In this document: positions 3,831 through 63,774 of the stretch, in pieces
How the letters are laid out: each line of letters begins with the position of its first letter
Numbering within the stretch: the stretch's first letter is position 1
DNA from: a bacterium
GTDB taxonomy: Bacteria; Patescibacteriota; Minisyncoccia; Phycocordibacterales; Phycocordibacteraceae
Assembly (NCBI GenBank): GCA_023269085.1
Contig: JAHFML010000001.1
Location: 11,966-75,965 of the forward strand
DNA length: 64,000 nucleotides
Direction: 5' to 3'
Notes under the pieces: generated by a model
The model's database searches: none
What the model saw: only the letters and a program-made list of their open reading frames with translations
Told to the model about the DNA's origin: nothing
Translations under genes and position numbers: made by a program

Positions 3831-5075
3831 CTAGGCGCTAGGCGCTAATAACGCCTCACGTGATTTCTTTTCAACTTTTCCCGTCGCCCGATCGACCACC
3901 TCGAAGACGCCACTCGCGACCGCCTCGCGACCGACGATGACGCGCTTCGGGATGCCGAGTAGATCGCTCTCGGCAAATTTCTCGCCCGCGCGCAGGTCGC
4001 GATCATCGTACAAGACCTCGACACCGGCTTTTTGCAAATCGACATACAGCGCCTCAGCGACTTTTGAGATTTCATCATCACCCTTACCGAGGGAGACGAG
4101 ATGCACCGCAAAGGGCGCGACGCTCAGGGACCAGACGAGGCCTTTTTCGTCGCCAAATGTTTCTGCGATGACACCCATGAGGCGCGAGATGCCGATGCCG
4201 AAACAGCCCATGATCGGGAGTTGGTCCTTCCCCTCCCTATCTTTATACGTGAACGAAAAATCTTTGGCATATTTTGTACCAAGATCAAAAATGTTGCCTA
4301 CCTCGGAAGCCTTCGCGCGCGAAAGTTCTCCCGCGTTACAACGGGTGCAAGCGTTGCCTTCTTTCTGATCGCTGATCTCAGCGTTGACGCAATAGGAGCA
4401 GTGATTGCAATACAAAATGTCATCTTCACCCGCGTCGGTGAGCACCATGAATTCATACGAGAGCTTCGTCGTGAACGCGCCTCCTGACGCTTCGGTCGCC
4501 TTCGCAATTAGGCCGAGGCGTGAGTATATTTTCAAATAGGCTTCTTTCACCTCTGCATAGAACCGATCGAAATCTTCTTGTGTCTCGTGGAAGGAGTACA
4601 TGTCCTTCATCGTGAACTCGCGACCGCGCATGATGCCGCTCTTGGCGCGGAGCTCATCGCGGTATTTCTGCCCGATCTGATAGATGGCAACGGGCAGATC
4701 TTTATACGAAGTGAGATATTCGCGCGCGATCGGCGTCACTATTTCTTCTTCGCTCTGGCCGACTGTGTACTCCTTTTCAGTTCGACTCATGAGTTTGAAC
4801 ACGACATCGACTGAATCCCACGCGCCCGTCTGCTTCCACGGCTCGCTCGGGTGCAGAGTCGCCATGCGAATCTCTTGTCCTCCAACCGCATCCATCTCTT
4901 CGCGCACGACACGCTCAATCTTTTCGAGCACGCGGCGACCAAGCGGCAGATACGAATAGACACCCGCCATCTCCTTGTGCACGAAGCCCGCGCGCACGAG
5001 GAGCTGGGCGTTCTTCGAGACTTCGTCGGCGGGTGCCTCCCGCCGCGCCTTGGTGAAGAGCTGTGATTGTCGCAT
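3831..5075 (-). CDS. proS: Prolyl-tRNA synthetase. No INS editing domain; a Cys4 (CxxC...CxxC) insertion sits in its place.
   Basis: Class II aaRS motifs (FTMKDMYSF; GCFGIGISRLMG) and a C-terminal anticodon-binding domain. Start taken at ATG 5075 (MRQSQLF). The part of the ORF upstream of that is Arg/His-rich read-through. Confidence 0.85.
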   Translation of the reverse strand: MRQSQLFTKARREAPADEVSKNAQLLVRAGFVHKEMAGVYSYLPLGRRVLEKIERVVREEMDAVGGQEIRMATLHPSEPWKQTGAWDSVDVVFKLMSRTEKEYTVGQSEEEIVTPIAREYLTSYKDLPVAIYQIGQKYRDELRAKSGIMRGREFTMKDMYSFHETQEDFDRFYAEVKEAYLKIYSRLGLIAKATEASGGAFTTKLSYEFMVLTDAGEDDILYCNHCSYCVNAEISDQKEGNACTRCNAGELSRAKASEVGNIFDLGTKYAKDFSFTYKDREGKDQLPIMGCFGIGISRLMGVIAETFGDEKGLVWSLSVAPFAVHLVSLGKGDDEISKVAEALYVDLQKAGVEVLYDDRDLRAGEKFAESDLLGIPKRVIVGREAVASGVFEVVDRATGKVEKKSREALLAPSA

Positions 5076-5107
5076 GCTCTGTAGTATACGCCCGCTTAGT
5101 GCGCAGA

Positions 5108-5161
5108 GCAAAACAAGGTCGAACCTTAAATCCGAATCCTCAAGGTTCGACCTTGTTTTGC
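5108..5161. repeat. Palindromic hairpin element, family B copy 1: a perfect 20-bp stem (gcaaaacaaggtcgaacctt / aaggttcgaccttgttttgc) with a 14-nt loop
   Basis: Seen directly in the sequence. Lies between the rseP stop (5162) and the proS start. Related copies occur at 10228-10269 and 63732-63774. Confidence 0.8.
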
Positions 5162-6259
5162 TCACCCAACAATCTTGAAAATGTCGTGGGCGGTGATGAC
5201 GAGCATGAGGAGGATGAGGAAGGCGAAACTCACGGCATTTACATTTTGTGCGATGCGCGCTTTGATCGGGCATCGGGTGATACCTTCGATAATCACGAAG
5301 AGGAGACGACCGCCGTCGAGTGCAGGGATAGGGATGAGGTTGATGAGGGCGAGATTAATCGAGATAATAGCCATGATTGAAAGGAGATCGCCGATACCTT
5401 GTGCCGACGCGTTCCCGACGACGCCCGCGATGCCGACCGGCCCCGAGACCTGCGAGAGATCAGCCGAGAAGGTGAAGACGCCGTAGAAGAAATGCGCGAG
5501 CCCGGTCGCGGTGAGCACCGTCGCGCCCCACGTGAGCGACGCGCCTTGCACGAGTGACTCGGTGAAGGAGAGCGGCACGACCCCGATGGTCGCCACCGAG
5601 ACCCCGAGCGCGTAGCGCGAGGGGTCAGCGGGAACGACGCCCGCCGCGGGCGCCGCGACGACACTCTTCTCTTGCCCGTTACGCTTCACCTCAAGCGTGA
5701 CCTCGTGCCCGTCGCTCGCGGCGATGAAGGTCGAGAAGCTCTTCGGGTCGGCGGCATGCCACGCTCCCAGCATGTCCGGCGTGTTCACCACCACTTTAAG
5801 AATCGAGTCGCCCGGGAGAAGCCCAGCGCGCGCGGCGGGAGAACCGGGGAGCACGTCGGCGACCGCGAGCTCTGTGTGCGTCGCGGTCGCGACCTCGCTC
5901 TCGTCGAGCGCGCGCGGCGTGCCCGCGACAAGCGCGCCCGTGATGAGCACATACGCGAAGAGCATGTTCATCGCGATGCCAGCGACCAGCACGACGGCTT
6001 GCAAGATACGCGGCTTTGACGTGAACGAACGTTCGCCCTCTGCGCCGTCTTCGCCATATATCCGCACGAAGCCGCCGAAGGGCAGCCAGTTGAGCGTGTA
6101 CTCGGTCCCGCCCCACTTCCCTATCGTGAGAGCCTTCGGCGGGTAGCCAAGGCCGAACTCGTCGACGCGCATGCCCGAGAGCTTCGCGGCGATGAAGTGC
6201 CCGAGCTCATGCACCACGATGAGCGCAACGATGACAATGACAAAAATGAGGATATGCAT
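5162..6259 (-). CDS. rseP: RIP metalloprotease RseP (site-2 protease, M50 family)
   Basis: HELGHF zinc motif in TM1, a PDZ-like middle region, and a C-terminal LDGG motif. 365 aa. Confidence 0.85.
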   Translation of the reverse strand: MHILIFVIVIVALIVVHELGHFIAAKLSGMRVDEFGLGYPPKALTIGKWGGTEYTLNWLPFGGFVRIYGEDGAEGERSFTSKPRILQAVVLVAGIAMNMLFAYVLITGALVAGTPRALDESEVATATHTELAVADVLPGSPAARAGLLPGDSILKVVVNTPDMLGAWHAADPKSFSTFIAASDGHEVTLEVKRNGQEKSVVAAPAAGVVPADPSRYALGVSVATIGVVPLSFTESLVQGASLTWGATVLTATGLAHFFYGVFTFSADLSQVSGPVGIAGVVGNASAQGIGDLLSIMAIISINLALINLIPIPALDGGRLLFVIIEGITRCPIKARIAQNVNAVSFAFLILLMLVITAHDIFKIVG

Positions 6260-6826: not shown

Positions 6827-7528
6827 TTATAGCAGACCCTGCGGCGTCACGAGCGAGAGGTGTTCGAGAATCATCTTGACCGGCGCCGAACGGTCGTAGA
6901 GATACCCGCGCAGAGTTGCGATGTCGGACAAAAGCGCCGTGTGTCTTTGTATCGAAGTCTGACTTCGATACGCGGCCACCTCGATACCGTTCAGGAGCGC
7001 GATAGCCTCGTCGCGGTGCGCGCGACGCTCATCGTCATCCTTCCCACTCGCAAGCTTCTTCGCGATAGTGGTGCGCTTTTCTTTTGTCGCGGTGATGAAT
7101 TCTCGCGCGATCTCGGGAATAATGTGGGACATCGTAAGTCCCACATTGGATGTAGGACTTACGATGTCCGACATTGAGAGCACCTGCACGCGGGAGCGAA
7201 GCGTCGGCAAGAGCCCGCCGAGTGTCGGGAAGATGAGGAAGAGATGCGTGCCAAAAGGCGGCTCCTCGAAGACTTTGAGGAGCGCATTTTGCGCTTCGTG
7301 ATAGGCACGCGAAGCCGCGATGATAATCACGCGATGCTCACCCGCGAATGCCGCCCCCGCGGCGAGCTCCGTTACTCGCCGCGCATCTGCGACCGAGAAG
7401 AGACCGTACTGCAAAACGACTACATCGGGATTCCCCTCCGCTTTCATGCCCAAGTCGCGCTCGGCAAAGCCGAGCGCGACTGCTATCCCTTCCTCTGCCT
7501 CTCCCTCTATGACAAACGCGTGGTGCAT
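6827..7528 (-). CDS. holB: DNA polymerase III delta-prime subunit-like protein (clamp loader, no P-loop)
   Basis: NALLKVFEEPP box and SRV(Q) motif. No Walker A. 233 aa. Carries an in-frame palindromic insertion at 7131-7179. Confidence 0.65.
   Translation of the reverse strand: MHHAFVIEGEAEEGIAVALGFAERDLGMKAEGNPDVVVLQYGLFSVADARRVTELAAGAAFAGEHRVIIIAASRAYHEAQNALLKVFEEPPFGTHLFLIFPTLGGLLPTLRSRVQVLSMSDIVSPTSNVGLTMSHIIPEIAREFITATKEKRTTIAKKLASGKDDDERRAHRDEAIALLNGIEVAAYRSQTSIQRHTALLSDIATLRGYLYDRSAPVKMILEHLSLVTPQGLL
7131..7179. repeat. Nested palindrome inside the holB coding sequence: 15-bp arms ggacatcgtaagtcc / ggacttacgatgtcc (7137-7151 / 7165-7179) with a 13-nt loop, plus an overlapping aatgtggg / cccacatt pair
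   Basis: Seen directly in the sequence. The holB reading frame stays open through it. Confidence 0.8.
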
Positions 7529-9914: not shown

Positions 9915-9937
9915 GGGTGGACACCTAGTGTCCACCC
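9915..9937. repeat. REP-like palindrome gggtggacac-cta-gtgtccaccc, copy 1
   Basis: 10-bp stem with a 3-nt loop. Core 14-mer gacacctagtgtcc is shared by six sites in the window. Confidence 0.85.
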
Positions 9938-9940
9938 GAG

Positions 9941-9959
9941 TTGGACATCGGATGTCCAA
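9941..9959. repeat. Second palindrome ttggacatc-g-gatgtccaa adjacent to REP copy 1
   Basis: 9-bp arms. Shares ggacatcg/gatgtcc with the holB-internal element. Confidence 0.6.
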
Positions 9960-9999
9960 GTTAGTGCGACCGTGCCGTTTTCTGCTACAATCACGAGAC

Positions 10000-10566
10000 A
10001 TGAAAGAAATCGTGCAAGACGGAGCACCGGTGCTCCGCGATATCGCGAGTCTCGTCCCCGAGGACATGTTCGGCGGCCATGAGCTCGCGCAGATTATCGC
10101 CGACATGAAGACCGCCCTCGACCCCGAGCTCGAGGGCGTCGCTATCGCCGCACCGCAGATAGGCGTCTCGTATCGCATCTTCGTCGTGCGCAAGGATCGT
10201 ACCGTGACCCCTCCGCCGATGGACGACCAAGGTTCGACCTTAGCCCGAGATTCTCAAGGTCGAACCTTGAATGCGCCAAGCTACGAAGTCTACATCAATC
10301 CTGAAATTATAAAGACCTCGCGACGGCGCGCGAGCGTCGACGAAGGATGTCTCTCGGTGCGCGGTATCTACGGCTCGACACGGCGACATGAGCGCGTCAC
10401 CGTTCGCGCGCGGAATAGTGATGGCTCCCGCTTCGAGCGCGGCGGCGGCGGCATCATGGCGCAGATATTCGAACACGAGGTCGACCATTTGAACGGCATC
10501 CTCTTCACCGACCATGCCGAGCGTCTTGTCCACATCGAACATGAACCAAATGAGCGTATCACCTAA
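10000..10566 (+). CDS. def: Peptide deformylase, carrying an in-frame insertion of about 14-16 aa derived from a palindromic element
   Basis: Motifs GVAIAAPQIG, EGCLS and HEVDHLNG in the canonical order. Start taken at MKEIVQDG. Confidence 0.85.
   Translation: MKEIVQDGAPVLRDIASLVPEDMFGGHELAQIIADMKTALDPELEGVAIAAPQIGVSYRIFVVRKDRTVTPPPMDDQGSTLARDSQGRTLNAPSYEVYINPEIIKTSRRRASVDEGCLSVRGIYGSTRRHERVTVRARNSDGSRFERGGGGIMAQIFEHEVDHLNGILFTDHAERLVHIEHEPNERIT
10228..10269. repeat. Palindromic hairpin element, family B copy 2, located inside the def CDS (arms caaggttcgacctt / aaggtcgaaccttg, 14-nt loop)
   Basis: Seen directly. 42 nt. Lies between def motifs 1 and 2, where this Def is about 16-20 aa longer than the E. 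coli spacing (recalled from memory). Confidence 0.8.
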
Positions 10567-11377
10567 GTTTGCCTTCTTCGGCACGCCGGCTGTTGCGGCG
10601 ACAACGCTTGCACATCTTATTGAAAACGATTTTATCCCAACACTCGTCGTCACCTCGCCCGACGCACCGCGCGGGCGTGGCCTTGTCCTAACTCCGTCGC
10701 CGACCAAGGTGCTCGCGCTCGAAAACAGCATCCCCGTCATGACACCGAGCGTGCTCGACGAAAGTGCTATTGCTGATATTAAAAAATATACTTGCGAATA
10801 CGCCGTCGTGGTCGCCTACGGCAAGATATTCCCCGACGCGTTCTTCACTGTGTTTCCTCGAGGCATGTTGAATGTGCACTACTCTCTCTTGCCGAAATAT
10901 CGCGGCGCGACGCCGCTCGAAACCGCACTCTTGCGGGGCGAAAAGGAAACTGGTGTGACAGTACAGAAGGTCGTGTGCGAGGTGGACGCGGGTGATATTC
11001 TCGCACAAGAAGCGATTCAAATTGGTGCGGGAGAAACTGCGCGCACTCTCCGACCGCGACTCATCGAGATGGGCGCTGAGCTCCTCGTCGCGACGCTTCC
11101 GGCATTTGAGCGTGGCGAGGTCCGCGCCGTGCCGCAAGACTCCTCTCGCGCCACGCGCGCCTACAAGATAAAAAAAGAAGACGGCCTCCTCGACCTCGCG
11201 GGAGATGCACGAGAGAATTGGAACAAGTATCGCGCCTACGCCGACTCTATCGGCACATATTTTATGAAAGAGGGGAAACGAGTGAAGATTACGGACGCGG
11301 AATTTGTCCGTCAGCCGACGGACAAATTCCGCGTCCTGCGCATCATCCCCGAGGGCAAGCGCGAGCAAGACTTCTAA
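10550..11377 (+). CDS. fmt: Methionyl-tRNA formyltransferase
   Basis: N-terminal FFGTP formyl-transferase fold, SLLPKYRGA motif and a C-terminal domain. Overlaps the def end by about 17 nt. Confidence 0.85.
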   Translation: MSVSPKFAFFGTPAVAATTLAHLIENDFIPTLVVTSPDAPRGRGLVLTPSPTKVLALENSIPVMTPSVLDESAIADIKKYTCEYAVVVAYGKIFPDAFFTVFPRGMLNVHYSLLPKYRGATPLETALLRGEKETGVTVQKVVCEVDAGDILAQEAIQIGAGETARTLRPRLIEMGAELLVATLPAFERGEVRAVPQDSSRATRAYKIKKEDGLLDLAGDARENWNKYRAYADSIGTYFMKEGKRVKITDAEFVRQPTDKFRVLRIIPEGKREQDF

Positions 11378-29447: not shown

Positions 29448-29502
29448 AGACGGTCTGCGTCATTCATTGGGTTATATGGAAACAGCCGCAATTCGCACCC
29501 CA

Positions 29503-30804
29503 ATGACATTCGAGCAAGCCGTTACAAGCCCCGTTCGATACTGCCTCTATGCCCGCAAGAGCACCGAACAGGACGAGCTTCAAGCCGACTCGCAGATCAA
29601 GGAGATGAGCGAGGCGGCCATCAGAGACGGATTGGAGATAGCTGAAGTCAGAAAAGAATCGCACTCGGCCAAGGAGTCTGGCCAGCGACCGGTCTTCAAG
29701 AAGATGCTCGAAGATATACGCAGAGGTATGTTCAACGGCATCATCGCGTGGGATCCATCCCGTATAAGCCGCAACGCTGGAGACCTCGGATCAGTCGTCG
29801 ATCTAATGGACCAGAAGCTTATCGTCGATATCCGAACGCATGGGCAACGATTTACCAACTCGCCGAATGAGAAATTCCTCTTGATGATTCTCTGTAGCCA
29901 GGCGAAGCTCGAGAATGATCATAAGGGAGAGAACGTGAAGCGCGGTCTCCGAGCGAAGTGCGACATGGGATATCGACCCGGCGTCTCGCCGATCGGTTAC
30001 ATCCATGACAAATATGCTGACAAAGGACAAAAGCGCGTTCTCGTCGATCCTAAGCGTGCGCCGATTGTCAAGCAGATGTTCGAGAAGGTCGCGTACGAAG
30101 ATTGGAGCGGTCGCGACTTGCATGAATGGTTTGTGCAAACCGGCTTCATGACCCGATCTGGCAAACGTGTGGCGCTCTCGGGCATCTACAGGATGCTCAA
30201 GGATACTTTCTATTACGGGGAGTTCGAATATCCTGAAGGGAGCGGAAAAATCTACCGAAGTGCCGTCGAGTCAATTATAACGAAGGAGCTATTCCTCAAG
30301 GCCCAAGCAAATCTGCAGGCTCCCCCACGCAGACATCCCGGCACCAACGAGTTCGGATTCACCCGCCTCTTCATCTGTGGCGCGTGCGGCTCCGGTATCA
30401 CTGCCGAAGAAAAGTTCAAGAACCTCAAGAATGGTGCTCGCAATCGGTATGTTTATTATCACTGCACTCGGTATAACGATAAACGCTGTAAAGAGAAACC
30501 GATTCGTGAAGAAAACCTTGTTGAGCAATTGCTGCGGATTATCGACAAGGTCGATAACAATGAGATTGGTGCCCGTGCGCAGATCGGTAAAGAGGTCGCG
30601 CGATATCGTCAGATTGCTTATGGCGTCCTCGGTTACGAACCAGAGCTTGTTCGAGTACCGCCTGAAGCCGATGTGAGACAGTACACGAAGCACGTACTCA
30701 AGTACGGCACCAAGGAAGAGCGGCGGGAGATAATTGGGTGTCTCGATGGAAGAATTGAACTCAAGAGCAAGAATCTTGGTATACGAATCTTTGCAGAATG
30801 CTAA
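29503..30804 (+). CDS. Large serine recombinase (resolvase/invertase catalytic domain, recombinase domain and zinc ribbon)
   Basis: YARKSTEQDE catalytic Ser region. A C-x2-C...C-x-C zinc ribbon (CGACGSG...YYHCTRYNDKRC). Divergent from hsdM. The longest ORF starts at 29467. Confidence 0.8.
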   Translation: MTFEQAVTSPVRYCLYARKSTEQDELQADSQIKEMSEAAIRDGLEIAEVRKESHSAKESGQRPVFKKMLEDIRRGMFNGIIAWDPSRISRNAGDLGSVVDLMDQKLIVDIRTHGQRFTNSPNEKFLLMILCSQAKLENDHKGENVKRGLRAKCDMGYRPGVSPIGYIHDKYADKGQKRVLVDPKRAPIVKQMFEKVAYEDWSGRDLHEWFVQTGFMTRSGKRVALSGIYRMLKDTFYYGEFEYPEGSGKIYRSAVESIITKELFLKAQANLQAPPRRHPGTNEFGFTRLFICGACGSGITAEEKFKNLKNGARNRYVYYHCTRYNDKRCKEKPIREENLVEQLLRIIDKVDNNEIGARAQIGKEVARYRQIAYGVLGYEPELVRVPPEADVRQYTKHVLKYGTKEERREIIGCLDGRIELKSKNLGIRIFAEC

Positions 30805-31452: not shown

Positions 31453-32032
31453 CACGTTGCCTCTTGTTACCAAGAGAGTGGACTATATCATCACCCGTAT
31501 CTGTTCTCACAGATCGAGGGTGCGAGGCGCTTCGTCCTTCGATTATTCTCAGGACTACTCCCTTGCGGGATAGTCTCTACACCTTCCTCTCGACATGCGC
31601 CGAGAGACTTGGCTCGGGATTGCCCACAGCATTTCCTCTGTTAGGGGTTCCCCGAATTCACCTCGTGTTCGACCTGAATCTCTTCAGGAAGCTGCGTAAT
31701 GCCTGCGTGCACTTCACGGTGACAATTCGCACAAACAAGAGCGCATTTATCGATTTCTTCTTTGATTTTTTCCCATGATCTCGTGAGCCCTTTTGTCGAG
31801 AGACCGAAGTCTTTCTTCGTAGGATCTTTATGGTGAAAATCAAGCGCTCCTGAATAACGATCGTAACCGCAAATAATGCACTTCCCGCCTTTGTACTCAC
31901 GCGCCATTTCTCGAAGTTTTTTACGACGTTCAGTAACAGCTTTGCGCAAATACTCTGCACGGTCGGCATAAGTCCTTTTTTCTTTTGGCATACTCAGATA
32001 AGTATACCATTGGGTTTCGGACTTGAACCACA
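31453..32032 (-). other. Intervening sequence inside the tRNA anticodon loop, a candidate ORF-containing group I intron (boundaries +/-2 nt)
   Basis: The 5' exon ends in U and the insert ends in G. The insert contains two GNRA-tetraloop hairpins (cucuug-GUAA-caagag at 31461-31476 and uccc-GCAA-ggga at 31561-31572, both read on the minus strand). The same-strand HNH ORF lies within it. Classic P1/P7 elements were not confidently identified by eye. Confidence 0.45.
31641..31991 (-). CDS. Small HNH endonuclease (116 aa) encoded within the tRNA intervening sequence
   Basis: CIICG...LDFHHKDP...CANCH: a HNH/His-Me finger with two CxxC pairs. Same orientation as the tRNA. Confidence 0.7.
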   Translation of the reverse strand: MPKEKRTYADRAEYLRKAVTERRKKLREMAREYKGGKCIICGYDRYSGALDFHHKDPTKKDFGLSTKGLTRSWEKIKEEIDKCALVCANCHREVHAGITQLPEEIQVEHEVNSGNP

Positions 32033-45286: not shown

Positions 45287-45311
45287 CGGGTGGACACCTA
45301 GTGTCCACCCG
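45287..45311. repeat. REP-like palindrome, copy 2 (cgggtggacacctagtgtccacccg)
   Basis: Identical core. Lies immediately after the ROK stop and before the terminator hairpin. Confidence 0.85.
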
Positions 45312-46173: not shown

Positions 46174-46223
46174 CACCCTGCGGGTGGACACCGGGTGGAC
46201 ACCTAGTGTCCACCCGCAGGGTG
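46174..46223. repeat. REP-like element, copy 3: extended 18-bp hairpin caccctgcgggtggacac...gtgtccacccgcagggtg with a duplicated left half-site
   Basis: Seen directly. Lies 8 nt upstream of the transposase-like gene. Confidence 0.85.
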
Positions 46224-46230
46224 TATACTG

Positions 46231-46932
46231 ATGCGTATGGGATATCGAGAATCGGTTACTGACTCCTATGTGCATGTCTATAATCGCGGCGCGAAGAAGC
46301 TTGATATATTTCGTGAACATGCCGACCTCTTTCGTCTTATGTACGGCCTCTACTATTTCAACAACGAAAATCCGATGTCCGCTTCGTGGGTGCGCGATGT
46401 TGAACGCGCAGGAGGCATGCACACTTTCGCATGGCCGGAACATTGGGAACCGCGCGCGCCGCTCGTCTCAATACTCGCATTCACCATCATGCCGAACCAT
46501 TTTCATATCGTCTTGAAGGAGATTGTTGACGGCGGTGTCGGGAAGTTTATGCATCGGGTCAGCATGAGTTATTCAAAATTCATCAACGAAAAATATGCTG
46601 AGAACGGTAGCTTATTCCAGGGCACGTATAAAGCTCGGCGTATTGACGACGAAACAGATCTCCACAATTTATTGGTCTACACGATGATCAAGAACCCTTT
46701 TGAACTATACCCGAGCGGCCTGCGGCACGCGTGCCAGAATTTTGATCAAGCGTACGATCATGCTCTTGCGTATCCTCTCACGAGTCTCGCCGAATACGTA
46801 GAGCATACGAGCCCCGCAATACTTGATCATGGCCTGCTACGCGACATCGGCGAGGACCGGAGTGCTTTCAAAGAATTTGCCCGAGAGAGCATGGCGCATC
46901 ATCTCGATCAGATGAACATATTCGATTTCTAG
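46231..46932 (+). CDS. IS200-like / REP-associated tyrosine transposase (RAYT)-like protein (Y1 HUH family)
   Basis: N-terminal YVHVYNRGAKKLDIF (the YHV.NRG signature of the PF01797-like family). HuH motif MPNHFHIVL. Downstream Tyr candidates. REP copies flank it on both sides. Confidence 0.65.
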   Translation: MRMGYRESVTDSYVHVYNRGAKKLDIFREHADLFRLMYGLYYFNNENPMSASWVRDVERAGGMHTFAWPEHWEPRAPLVSILAFTIMPNHFHIVLKEIVDGGVGKFMHRVSMSYSKFINEKYAENGSLFQGTYKARRIDDETDLHNLLVYTMIKNPFELYPSGLRHACQNFDQAYDHALAYPLTSLAEYVEHTSPAILDHGLLRDIGEDRSAFKEFARESMAHHLDQMNIFDF

Positions 46933-46947
46933 CCGTAGCGAACTCGG

Positions 46948-46973
46948 ACGGGTGGACACCTAGTGTCCACCCG
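46948..46973. repeat. REP-like palindrome, copy 4, between the convergent transposase and helicase genes
   Basis: acgggtggacacctagtgtccacccgt. Confidence 0.85.
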
Positions 46974-46978
46974 TCTGG

Positions 46979-61673: not shown

Positions 61674-62411
61674 ATGATCGATCTCCGCAATATCACGAAG
61701 ACCTACGGCTCGGGCCCCGAGGCCTACACCGCCCTCCGCAGCATCACCTTCTCGATCGACGAAGGCGAGTTCGTCGCTATTATGGGCCCCTCGGGCTCGG
61801 GCAAGTCGACCCTCATGCACATTCTCGGCTGTCTCGACACGCCGAGCCAAGGGACCTTCTCGCTTGATGGCCGCGATGTGTCGACGATGACCGACGACGA
61901 ACTCGCCGAGGTGCGCAAGGACAAAATAGGCTTCGTCTTCCAATCCTTCAATCTCCTCCCGCGCACGACCGTCCTGCGCAATGTCCTGCTCCCGCTCGTG
62001 TACGCCGGCATCGACCACGCCGAACGCGAAGATCGCGCCGAGCAGGCGCTTCTCGCCGCCGGGCTCACGCCAGAATATTTCTCGCACCTCTCCAATCAGC
62101 TCTCAGGTGGCCAGATCCAGCGCGTCGCTATCGCCCGCGCGCTCGTGAACGATCCGGCGCTCATCCTCGCCGATGAGCCGACCGGAAACCTCGATTCGCG
62201 TACGAGCCTTATCGTGCTCGGCACGCTCCAAGAGCTGAACCGCGCGCATGGCCGCACGATTATCCTCATCACCCACGAGCCCGACATCGCCGAGCACGCC
62301 GACCGCATCATCCGCCTCCGCGATGGCGAGATTGTCTCTGACGAGAAAAATAAAAAGGTTCGCGACGCAGTCGGCGAGACGCAATTATATGACGATAAAA
62401 ATACGGTATGA
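61674..62411 (+). CDS. ABC transporter ATP-binding protein (MacB/LolD type)
   Basis: GPSGSGKSTL, LSGGQIQRVAIARAL, ILADEPTGNLD. Confidence 0.9.
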   Translation: MIDLRNITKTYGSGPEAYTALRSITFSIDEGEFVAIMGPSGSGKSTLMHILGCLDTPSQGTFSLDGRDVSTMTDDELAEVRKDKIGFVFQSFNLLPRTTVLRNVLLPLVYAGIDHAEREDRAEQALLAAGLTPEYFSHLSNQLSGGQIQRVAIARALVNDPALILADEPTGNLDSRTSLIVLGTLQELNRAHGRTIILITHEPDIAEHADRIIRLRDGEIVSDEKNKKVRDAVGETQLYDDKNTV

Positions 62412-63643
62412 AAAATCGCGACCTCATTGACGAAACCTACGCCGCCCTCTCGGCGAACAAATCGCGCTCGGCGCTCACTATTCTCGGCATCGTGATAGGC
62501 ATCGCCTCGGTCATTGCGCTCACTGCTATCGGCCAGGGCGCGCAGAATTCTATCCAGTCCTCGATCCAATCGATCGGCTCGAACCTTATCGAGGTCTTGC
62601 CGGGCGCGGCGCGACAAATAGGCTTCGGCGCTTCGGGCGGCCGCGGCACCGCACGCTCGCTCACGAATGCGGACAAAACAGCGGTCGCGAATGTTGCAAA
62701 TATCGCGGCGATCTCGGGCGAATATTCGAGCCGCTTCCAGGTCGCCGCGGCAGGAGCGAACACGAACACCTCCGTCGATGGCGTCGACGCGGCGTATGCA
62801 AGCATCCGCAATCTCGTGATCGATCAGGGGACGTTCATCACTGATGTACAATCTTCTTCGCTCGCTCGCGTCGCGGTCGTCGGGCCCACCGTCGTCACCG
62901 ATCTCTTCGGCGCTTCTGCGGTCGCGAGCGACGCTATCGGGGCTCGTATCCGCATCAATAATTTACAATTCACTATTCAAGGCGTCACGAAGACGAAGGG
63001 CGGCTCGGGCTTCGGCAATCAGGACACGATGATCTATATCCCGATCGGCACCGCGCTCCAGTACTTCGCCGGCGCGAGCAACCAGTATCTCTCGACTATC
63101 GACATCCAAGCAGCCGATCAGACCAGCATGACGCAGGTACAAAATGACGTGACAAGCCTGCTCCTCACGCGGCACAATATCACCGACTCGACCAAAGCCG
63201 ACTTCAGCATCTTGAATCAGGCCGACATCGTCTCGACCGCCTCGAGCATCACCTCGACCTTCACCACGCTCCTCGCGGCGGTCGCGGGCATCTCGCTCAT
63301 CGTCGGCGGTATCGGTATCATGAACATGATGCTCACGACCGTCACCGAGCGCATGCGCGAGATCGGGCTCCGCAAGGCTATCGGCGCAACGCGAAGAGAT
63401 ATCAATATGCAATTCCTCGCTGAGGCGGTCGCGCTCACCTTCGTCGGCGGCGCGCTCGGCATCGCGCTCGGCTGGGGCGTCTCGTATCTCGTGTCATCGT
63501 TCGGCATCGTCCAAGCGCAAGTGACGCTCTCCTCCGTCCTGCTCGCCTTCGGCGTCTCGGCCGCGATCGGCATCGTCTTCGGCTGGTATCCGGCCCGCCG
63601 CGCCTCGAACCTGAACCCGATCGACGCGCTACGGTATGAATAA
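62408..63643 (+). CDS. ABC transporter permease (FtsX/MacB-type, 4 TM with a large periplasmic loop)
   Basis: N-terminal TM, periplasmic domain, C-terminal FtsX fold. 4-nt overlap with the ATPase gene. Confidence 0.85.
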   Translation: MKNRDLIDETYAALSANKSRSALTILGIVIGIASVIALTAIGQGAQNSIQSSIQSIGSNLIEVLPGAARQIGFGASGGRGTARSLTNADKTAVANVANIAAISGEYSSRFQVAAAGANTNTSVDGVDAAYASIRNLVIDQGTFITDVQSSSLARVAVVGPTVVTDLFGASAVASDAIGARIRINNLQFTIQGVTKTKGGSGFGNQDTMIYIPIGTALQYFAGASNQYLSTIDIQAADQTSMTQVQNDVTSLLLTRHNITDSTKADFSILNQADIVSTASSITSTFTTLLAAVAGISLIVGGIGIMNMMLTTVTERMREIGLRKAIGATRRDINMQFLAEAVALTFVGGALGIALGWGVSYLVSSFGIVQAQVTLSSVLLAFGVSAAIGIVFGWYPARRASNLNPIDALRYE

Positions 63644-63731: not shown

Positions 63732-63774
63732 CAAGGTTCGACCTTTGGCCCAAAATCTTCAAGGTCGAACCTTG
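63732..63774. repeat. Palindromic hairpin element, family B copy 3 (caaggttcgacctt / aaggtcgaaccttg, 15-nt loop)
   Basis: Seen directly. Intergenic, followed by gaat as in copy 2. Confidence 0.8.

Follow-up and report, generated by a model that had tools for sequence, protein, structure and literature searches.

In a 64-kb stretch of patescibacterial DNA (contig JAHFML010000001.1; hereinafter the window, meaning the entire stretch that was analyzed), the essential def gene for peptide deformylase contains an in-frame 42-nt hairpin, which we consider to be probably one copy of a miniature REPIN-like element spread by copying of the RAYT (repetitive extragenic palindromic [REP]-associated tyrosine transposase) type and translated and tolerated within the Def protein. 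This interpretation builds on what we observed of the anatomy, distribution, and genic location of the repeat family to which the hairpin belongs (family B), on an insertion polymorphism, and on the adjacency of family members to RAYT genes in other genomes. In the scenario that we favor, the element would consist of two inverted near-palindromes of 13 to 15 bp, (C)AAGGT-NNN-ACCTT(G), around a short variable spacer, and its most likely copying agent would be a RAYT-type HUH/Y1 (IS200-like) transposase that recognizes the hairpin in single-stranded DNA. Because very little intergenic space is available and the 13-mer is free of stop codons, in-frame copies that land in tolerant surface loops would survive and be translated. 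The copy in def, whose intact frame implies translation, would add 14 residues to an exposed loop between motifs 1 and 2 and is presumably tolerated rather than useful. Intergenic copies would tend toward longer stems, in at least one case through an inverted copy of adjacent host sequence.

The hairpin in def and its sister copies in the window

The hairpin occupies positions 10228 to 10269 on the plus strand, both as read off the sequence (caaggttcgacctt-agcccgagattctc-aaggtcgaaccttg) and as recovered by inverted-repeat search and folding. Its arms (10228-10241 and 10256-10269) are 14 nt each, are 100% complementary, and enclose a 14-nt loop; they comprise REP arm 1 (10229-10241; AAGGTTCGACCTT) and REP arm 2 (10256-10268; AAGGTCGAACCTT) on either side of the spacer (10242-10255), with an outer C/G pair closing the stem. 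Folded as RNA, the hairpin reaches -24.7 kcal/mol (z = -5.3 versus shuffled controls). The host gene (10000-10566, plus strand; 188 aa; assigned to peptide deformylase by PF01327 and alignment) retains an intact open reading frame (ORF) in which the GVAIAAPQ, EGCLS, and HEVDH motifs are all preserved. Base 10228 opens codon 77, so that the hairpin coincides exactly with codons 77 to 90 and encodes the peptide QGSTLARDSQGRTL (...DDQGSTLARDSQGRTLNAP... across the insert) between Def motif 1 and motif 2, with the frame kept. An earlier inspection of the DNA without database searches (the sequence-only reading) had described a 42-nt in-frame hairpin between GVAIAAPQ and EGCLS, and the perfect 14-bp stem over these codons bears out that description.

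The same inspection had pointed to two intergenic copies of this hairpin, and both are real. One (5106-5163; unstranded) lies in the rseP-proS spacer with its arms swapped around a 14-nt loop; its stem is perfect, as had been claimed, but measures 22 bp rather than 20 bp. It lies within the 87-nt spacer between the rseP stop codon (5162-5164, minus strand) and the proS start (approximately 5075), and as RNA it folds with -45.1 kcal/mol (z = -8.9 versus shuffled controls). The other (63732-63774; unstranded; 14-bp stem and 15-nt loop) is found 89 nt downstream of a gene for a MacB/FtsX-type permease (62408-63643). The 13-mer AAGGTTCGACCTT has six exact matches in the window, all of them within the three hairpin pairs; shuffled windows hold a mean of 1.36 matches of this 13-mer, even with two mismatches allowed. 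An intrinsic terminator was rejected for the window copies, as a T run is absent 3' of all three, and a terminator scan of 4900-5400 returned sub-hairpins alone, on the strand antisense to rseP/proS. No Rfam family matches the hairpins at the gathering threshold, and permissive Rfam scans of the rseP-proS and def copies yielded generic miRNA-type hairpin matches alone, far below threshold.

Anatomy and spread of family B

A pattern scan of one genome per species with AAGGTYSRACCTT-N8-24-AAGGTYSRACCTT recovered at least 119 stretches (comparison loci are designated by L numbers below), and the family statistics rest on 133 copies among the matches listed. Within that set, the stretches come nearly all from metagenome-assembled genomes (MAGs) of Patescibacteria/Parcubacteria, with hosts among the Kaiser-, Lloyd-, Nomura-, Taylor-, Zambryski-, Moran-, Yonath-, and Vogelbacteria, and many further host MAGs bear the label "Saccharibacteria." The repeat family with coding and intergenic members that had been postulated from the window is, hence, large and not confined to the three copies found there. 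At least 10 copies occur on contigs of a single Lloydbacteria MAG (MHLS01).

The family B unit is composed of two near-palindromic 13-mers, AAGGT-NNN-ACCTT, inverted around a variable spacer of 8 to 22 nt, for an element size of 36 to 48 bp. The triplets at the centers of the two arms are complementary (TCG/CGA, CCG/CGG, or TCA/TGA) in 122 of the 133 copies, and when the center is relaxed to NNN, 131 of 145 pairs are complementary; five complementary pairs (CAG/CTG and GGA/TCC) have centers that were not demanded by the original search pattern. Both arm orders, TCG..CGA and CGA..TCG, are common, and a few pairs have identical centers (CGG/CGG, CCG/CCG, or TGA/TGA; e.g., L054, L073, and L106), suggesting that flipping of the 3-nt center is possible in each small palindrome and would explain part of the apparent covariation. 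The arms rarely stand alone: in 865 kb of loci, 284 of the 317 AAGGTNNNACCTT 13-mers are paired within 45 nt and 33 are single. A C at position -1 (68 of 122 copies) and a G at +1 (66 of 122 copies) extend each small palindrome, such that AAGGT-NNN-ACCTT usually grows to 15 bp through a closing C...G. The flanks of the copies are complementary (C...G or longer) and not direct repeats, and the only common feature of the spacers is a loose GRGAATYC-like motif. All six reading frames of the 13-mer are devoid of stop codons.

Family B copies inside genes

Of these copies, 74 of 133 (about 56%) lie deep inside ORFs, compared with 83 expected under random placement in the same loci. The ORF-based coding calls agreed with Pfam in 30 of 30 checks: the host ORFs tested (the ten longest and twenty more, including eighteen random picks) all have Pfam matches, 29 above the curated cutoff and one (L072) just below it. 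The in-frame spread into coding genes suggested by the sequence-only reading is, hence, a property of the family at large. The Pfam-tested hosts include IleRS, UvrA, SecA, TopA, Fmt, PheT, IF-2, GatB, and GatA, as well as ArgRS, a Mur ligase, UDG, Dus, RecJ, and FtsK. LeuRS has family B at five different sites, and LigA holds two copies in one gene, across one of which a 27-position zinc-finger model is stretched over 39 residues. Coding copies use all three frames, yielding the recurring peptides QGSTL/KGRTL, RSDL/RFDL/RSNL, and, more rarely, KVEP/KVRP; RSDL/QGSTL-type insert peptides occur in LeuRS, LigA, and others. Preservation of the frame by stem and loop length alone is ruled out, because, for most coding copies, 26 plus the loop length is not divisible by 3; the boundaries of the inserted unit must therefore fall outside the 13-mers. 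Intergenic copies are typically sited just past stop codons and have more extra perfect stem base pairs than genic copies (3.3 versus 1.4; p = 3.6e-5). Individual coding copies were also seen in frame within a reverse transcriptase (RVT_1) gene (L116, 7216-7249) and in the fmt gene of L080, at residue 269 of a 317-codon ORF.

An insertion polymorphism between rseP and proS

Two loci (L171 and L172) are syntenic with the window (mreB, proS, rseP, frr, holB, mreB, def, and fmt), and their rseP-proS spacers, at 41 and 45 nt, are free of the hairpin. Because both syntenic relatives lack it, the copy in the window is an insertion; in the alignment with these relatives, the window has about 45 extra bases directly before a conserved host TTTTGC. 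In the 22-bp hairpin, this TTTTGC makes up the outer stem on the right, and its left-hand complement, GCAAAA, is present only in the window. Thus, from the comparison of these three sequences, the stem extension appears to be an inverted copy of neighboring host sequence.

Palindromic inserts at the Def loop

We compared 120 Def homologs (64 to 100% identity), of which approximately 34 have GSTL-x4-QGRTL or a form clearly derived from it at this position, at least 8 have a different segment (LNASRSDASGELPAKQEVLAP), and the remainder have short proline-rich linkers. At the DNA level, the same hairpin, with identical arms and diverged loops, is present in the def genes of L120, L123, L134, and L171; in the L172 copy, one arm is mutated, and in L173, the arms are swapped. 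About 10 of the 34 B-type proteins have decayed arms (e.g., GATL, DSTL, and SPARIV). The loop states, namely, B, C (a different double hairpin), and neither, are interspersed over a tree built without the loop, and the 34 B-type sequences entail 23 parsimony changes on this weakly resolved tree. Alignment with orthologs thus confined the segment to related Paceibacteria Def proteins, among which it is patchy. This presence/absence pattern at the loop, together with the lack of the segment in structurally solved peptide deformylases (PDFs) of unrelated taxa, agrees with the earlier proposal that a member of a palindromic repeat family was inserted in def. The segment is not specific to the lineage of the window, as many relatives carry the same insert.

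With respect to the protein fold, the segment aligns to a 15-residue gap between two beta strands of the Leptospira PDF (Protein Data Bank code 1szz), whose equivalent region has been termed an enlarged, mobile CD loop. The gain of 14 residues given by the sequence-only reading holds against this structure but not against the closest element-free orthologs, relative to which the window Def is only 7 to 11 residues longer because they carry other loop sequence. For Def, an AlphaFold2 model based on 34 close homologs reached a mean predicted local distance difference test score of 46, and the alignment to solved PDFs was used instead of it for surface mapping; in this low-confidence model, the insert is placed between predicted strands 59-64 and 95-100.

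The arms of the hairpin are more constrained than their surroundings. When four orthologs are compared, 8 of the 9 informative columns in the arm codons show identity versus 19 of 90 elsewhere in def (Fisher p = 9.5e-5), and the loops between the arms differ. As this identity is far above that of the rest of the gene, the arms are conserved at the DNA level and not for the sake of the protein, and their strong conservation fits continued recognition by a protein or host-level use.

The same loop hosts other palindromes. An unrelated double hairpin of about 57 nt (the C type) is found there in L121 (approximately 270-330), L122, L124, L126, L133, and L138; it is composed of acgcgtcgc-gaa-gcgacgcgt and gaacttcctgc-ttc-gcaggaagttc, encodes LNASRSDASGELPASQEVLAP, and was seen in def genes alone. 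L140 has yet another palindromic pair at this position. Palindromic inserts have a hot spot in the Def loop.

RAYT-like transposase genes flanked by palindromes

The window contains a gene for a RAYT-like Y1 (IS200-like) transposase (46231-46932, plus strand; 233 aa; PF01797, 29 bits against a cutoff of 23), which shows that a REP/RAYT-type system exists in this genome. In NCBIfam, its product matches REP-associated tyrosine transposase best (with 30.5 bits, short of the cutoff of 80), and no second homolog of this protein was found in the 64 kb. Directly upstream of the gene lies a palindrome of a different family (family A; GGGTGGACAC-CTA-GTGTCCACCC; 46174-46223, unstranded), nested in a longer palindrome with 24-nt arms, and a partner copy follows downstream (46947-46975). 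By analogy with known systems, this two-sided placement of family A is the classic arrangement of a RAYT with its REPs. Further family A copies are located at 9916-9936, just upstream of def, and at 45289-45309, and the loop orientation is uniform in all four window copies.

When the window RAYT-like protein was used as a tblastn query, 9 of the 119 family B loci among the matches listed proved to contain Y1 transposase genes. In L039, L019, and L073, intact B 13-mers or doublets are present at both ends of the Y1 gene (in L073, the RAYT gene sits between single 13-mers with AGT...ACT flanks, each giving a stem of 8 bp and a loop of 3 nt), and in L042, B 13-mers lie upstream and a decayed hairpin lies downstream. 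About 0.13 hairpins would be expected that near a Y1 gene by chance (Poisson p ~7e-9). The Y1 proteins of these four loci pass the Pfam Y1_Tnp model, and their best NCBIfam match is again REP-associated tyrosine transposase. In two other loci, a family B hairpin is found in frame inside the RAYT-like gene itself (L090, 334-369; L070, 1440-1475), at the same position in orthologs that are 68% identical; L102 and L042 have other inserts in this region of the transposase.

At E <= 1e-10, 6,695 relatives of the L039 protein were found, those named by source being from Paceibacteria/Parcubacteria. Six loci encoding its homologs (L165-L170) were picked without regard to hairpins, and five of the six have lineage-specific palindromes on both sides of the transposase gene, some of which (AAGGACGGTCCTT, AAAGGACGGTCCTTT, and GGAAGGCAATTCCTTCC) are clearly related to family B. 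The gene tables of these six loci contain no tnpB beside the transposase gene. Co-diversifying transposase-REP pairs would give just such lineage-specific flanking palindromes.

Comparison with known palindromic elements

A published definition describes REPINs as two inverted palindromes of about 14 bp with a variable spacer and conserved REPs. Family B resembles the REP/REPIN-RAYT systems of Pseudomonas, Escherichia coli, and Stenotrophomonas in its two inverted short palindromes that form a hairpin around a variable spacer, in the length of the palindrome (about 14 bp in REPs; a 13-mer mostly extended to 15 bp with C...G here), in the HUH/Y1 IS200-like gene flanked by the same palindromes (here in other genomes), in palindromes that differ between lineages and track relatives of the transposase, and in the terminator-like character of some intergenic copies. 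It differs from them in size (about 36 to 45 bp versus about 100 bp) and apparently in number (a few copies per 100 kb versus tens to hundreds per genome), in that 74 of its 133 copies are deep in ORFs whereas REPs are almost exclusively extragenic, and in its patescibacterial hosts, whose transposases are distant from the curated RAYTs. Among the papers searched, none was found on this element or on a link of RAYTs or REPINs to Patescibacteria.

The Rickettsia palindromic elements (RPEs), reportedly described by Ogata et al. in 2000, likewise comprise in-frame palindromic repeats in essential housekeeping genes of a bacterium with a reduced genome, along with intergenic copies, and are translated into extra surface peptides; for family B, intact frames point to translation. 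RPEs are about 100 to 150 bp and are not known from outside Rickettsia, whereas the def element is 42 bp and its family is distributed over many candidate phyla of Parcubacteria. We know of no transposase for RPEs, whereas family B has a candidate enzyme. The resemblance to RPEs drawn by the sequence-only reading therefore holds for the in-frame copies in essential genes, while the anatomy is REPIN-like and RAYT-like genes are flanked by the element elsewhere.

As in MITEs (miniature inverted-repeat transposable elements), both the classic ones and those derived from IS200/IS605, family B may be a short nonautonomous element made from the hairpin ends of a Y1-transposase element. Unlike MITEs, it has no direct target-site duplications, and its left and right ends do not differ from each other but are identical palindromes; unlike in the IS200/IS605 elements, the transposase genes are single and hairpin flanked, with no tnpB adjacent in L165-L170. 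Neisseria DNA uptake sequence (DUS) pairs and Correia elements share with it short motifs placed as inverted pairs after genes and sometimes in ORFs. However, DUS are mostly single and very dense, whereas family B 13-mers are mostly paired and sparse. Correia elements are about 100 to 150 bp and have TA duplications, and neither this size nor this duplication pattern is seen in family B. Palindromes in the mitochondrial coding sequences of Nematomorpha (PMC6649704), like the GC-cluster and palindromic repeats of organelles, are also perfect inverted repeats with both arms translated, but they are organellar, much longer, and without a shared conserved core or an associated transposase. Thus, family B has an RPE-like effect on proteins and is better filed beside the REP/REPIN-RAYT systems.

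Alternative explanations

Several points weigh against the interpretation of the def hairpin as a RAYT-copied element. There is no RAYT gene flanked by family B within the 64-kb window, where the only Y1 gene is flanked by family A, and the enzyme for the B copies of this genome could be absent. The RAYT-like proteins score 30 to 47 bits against the NCBIfam equivalog cutoff of 80. No target-site duplication or insertion motif was found at family B copies, just the palindrome-lengthening C(-1)/G(+1). Copy density is low, with three copies per 64 kb here, and the def copies are the only ones in the 40 kb of L171 and L172. Gene calls for the family B loci came from a crude ORF finder that considered ORFs of at least 150 codons. 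At the Def loop, the number of independent gains is uncertain, the tree being poorly resolved. The identity of the arms amid changed synonymous sites is not expected of a neutrally decaying selfish insert; the conserved arms could reflect host function or repeated conversion or reinsertion.

The missing B-flanked RAYT and target duplication would suit a selfish palindrome of the RPE type that spreads independently of a Y1/RAYT enzyme, through recombination, gene conversion, or replication template switching, with the hairpins next to RAYT genes being ordinary insertions. So would the stem extension at 5106-5163 by an inverted host copy, which points to template switching, the home-made-looking perfect palindromes in fmt (11293-11336) and holB, and the presence of B copies inside RAYT genes just as in other genes. 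We still judge this unlikely, given that B 13-mers stand at both ends of three independent RAYT genes and, in an intact/decayed state, of a fourth (L042), that two-sided palindromes accompany five of six independently chosen homologs as well as the window RAYT, and that the adjacency to RAYT genes is far above chance; moreover, template switching alone fails to explain one conserved 13-mer across many genera. The conservation of the def arms at synonymous sites while the loops drift, the covariation of the stems, the longer stems of intergenic copies just past stop codons, and the known co-option of REPs as terminators could instead speak for a host-selected, cis-acting DNA or RNA hairpin, be it a protein-binding site, an RNase III or mRNA-stability element, or a terminator. 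Its placement, though, is near random with regard to genes and frames, with no consistent gene class or position; decayed arms in about 10 of the 34 B-type Def proteins, the mutated arm in L172, and the many element-free orthologs also argue against it, as do the lack of a T-tract at the three window copies and the lack of an Rfam match, and we attach little probability to it. A similarly small probability goes to a host-integrated parcubacterial REPIN-RAYT pair whose hairpins are selected even inside essential genes, where they might tune replication, repair, or expression as sites on DNA or mRNA at which proteins bind or processing occurs, or might be neutralized after transcription; such integration would explain the identical def arms amid drifted synonymous sites and a drifted loop.

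Two further explanations fare much worse than a RAYT-copied element. Patescibacteria are thought to depend on DNA uptake, and a short motif that is conserved over a broad taxon with "dialects" and occurs both within genes, in frames that are tolerated, and downstream of genes as inverted pairs is reminiscent of a DNA-uptake signal for natural transformation (of the type of the Neisseria DUS or the Haemophilus uptake signal sequence), in which inverted pairs would double as terminators. This candidate was rejected, since the 13-mers are almost never single (33 of 317, with all six in the window paired), and the density is about 1 per 20 to 60 kb, not about 1 per kb; we regard it as very improbable. 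Barely credible, in turn, is the notion that there is no element at all, i.e., that an ancestral Def loop selected as protein is palindromic by chance or that the hairpin is an assembly artifact. The sharing of GSTL...QGRTL by many Def orthologs at the same place would accord with an ancestral loop, but this DNA is also present at two intergenic sites in the window, and over 100 unrelated genes and spacers contain it, with all three frames represented; the identity of the arm codons far exceeds that of the rest of def; and the copies come from dozens of independent assemblies.

Implications

To our knowledge, in-frame palindromic invaders of genes are near unique to Rickettsia and have no known mechanism. 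Family B joins REPIN anatomy and RAYT-like neighbors with the location of more than half of its copies in genes, across many Parcubacteria lineages. If our interpretation is correct, the RPE-type phenomenon would gain an enzymatic mechanism that can be tested, and REPIN-RAYT systems would extend to the Candidate Phyla Radiation (CPR). CPR housekeeping proteins would then also acquire lineage-specific peptide insertions and apparent "hypervariable loops" from this element, and such insertions could mislead alignments, phylogenies, and structure prediction; the element would, in addition, provide a natural experiment on protein loops that tolerate an insertion of 12 to 16 residues.

Other palindromes and features of the window and its relatives

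Further in-frame palindromes are found close to def. In holB (6827-7528, minus strand), which encodes the delta' subunit of DNA polymerase III, two inverted palindromes of about 25 nt lie in frame at 7121-7175 (ATGTGGGAC..GTCCCACAT / ATGTAGGAC..GTCCGACAT; 26-nt arms, 92% complementary); at this site, the syntenic ortholog in L171 is 8 residues shorter, and that in L172 has a partly similar segment. The fmt gene (10514-11377) contains a perfect palindrome of 20 bp around a 4-nt loop (11293-11336), which encodes DAEFVRQPTDKFRV near the Fmt C terminus. As Fmt orthologs are just 3 residues shorter there, this looks like a native segment remodeled into a palindrome rather than a simple insertion. 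Upstream of def, a small palindrome, TTGGACATC-G-GATGTCCAA (9941-9960), comes directly after the family A copy and is followed on its 3' side by a TACAAT box about 20 nt before the def start codon.

A low-GC island at 20 to 32 kb (about 41 to 49% GC versus about 58 to 62% elsewhere) holds a group I intron (31460-31749, minus strand; Rfam, 67.5 bits), an overlapping HNH-type ORF (31641-31991, minus strand), and, nearby, a large serine recombinase-like ORF (29467-30804, plus strand). This island may represent a mobile element that became integrated. Neither an rRNA nor a tRNA host gene was detected. Among the comparison loci, we also noted parcubacterial IleRS proteins with an inserted histidine-phosphatase domain (L022, residues 516 to 680; L168, 5776-9252) and a LeuRS with an inserted NUDIX domain (L061, residues 407 to 537), which are whole-domain insertions in aminoacyl-tRNA synthetases.

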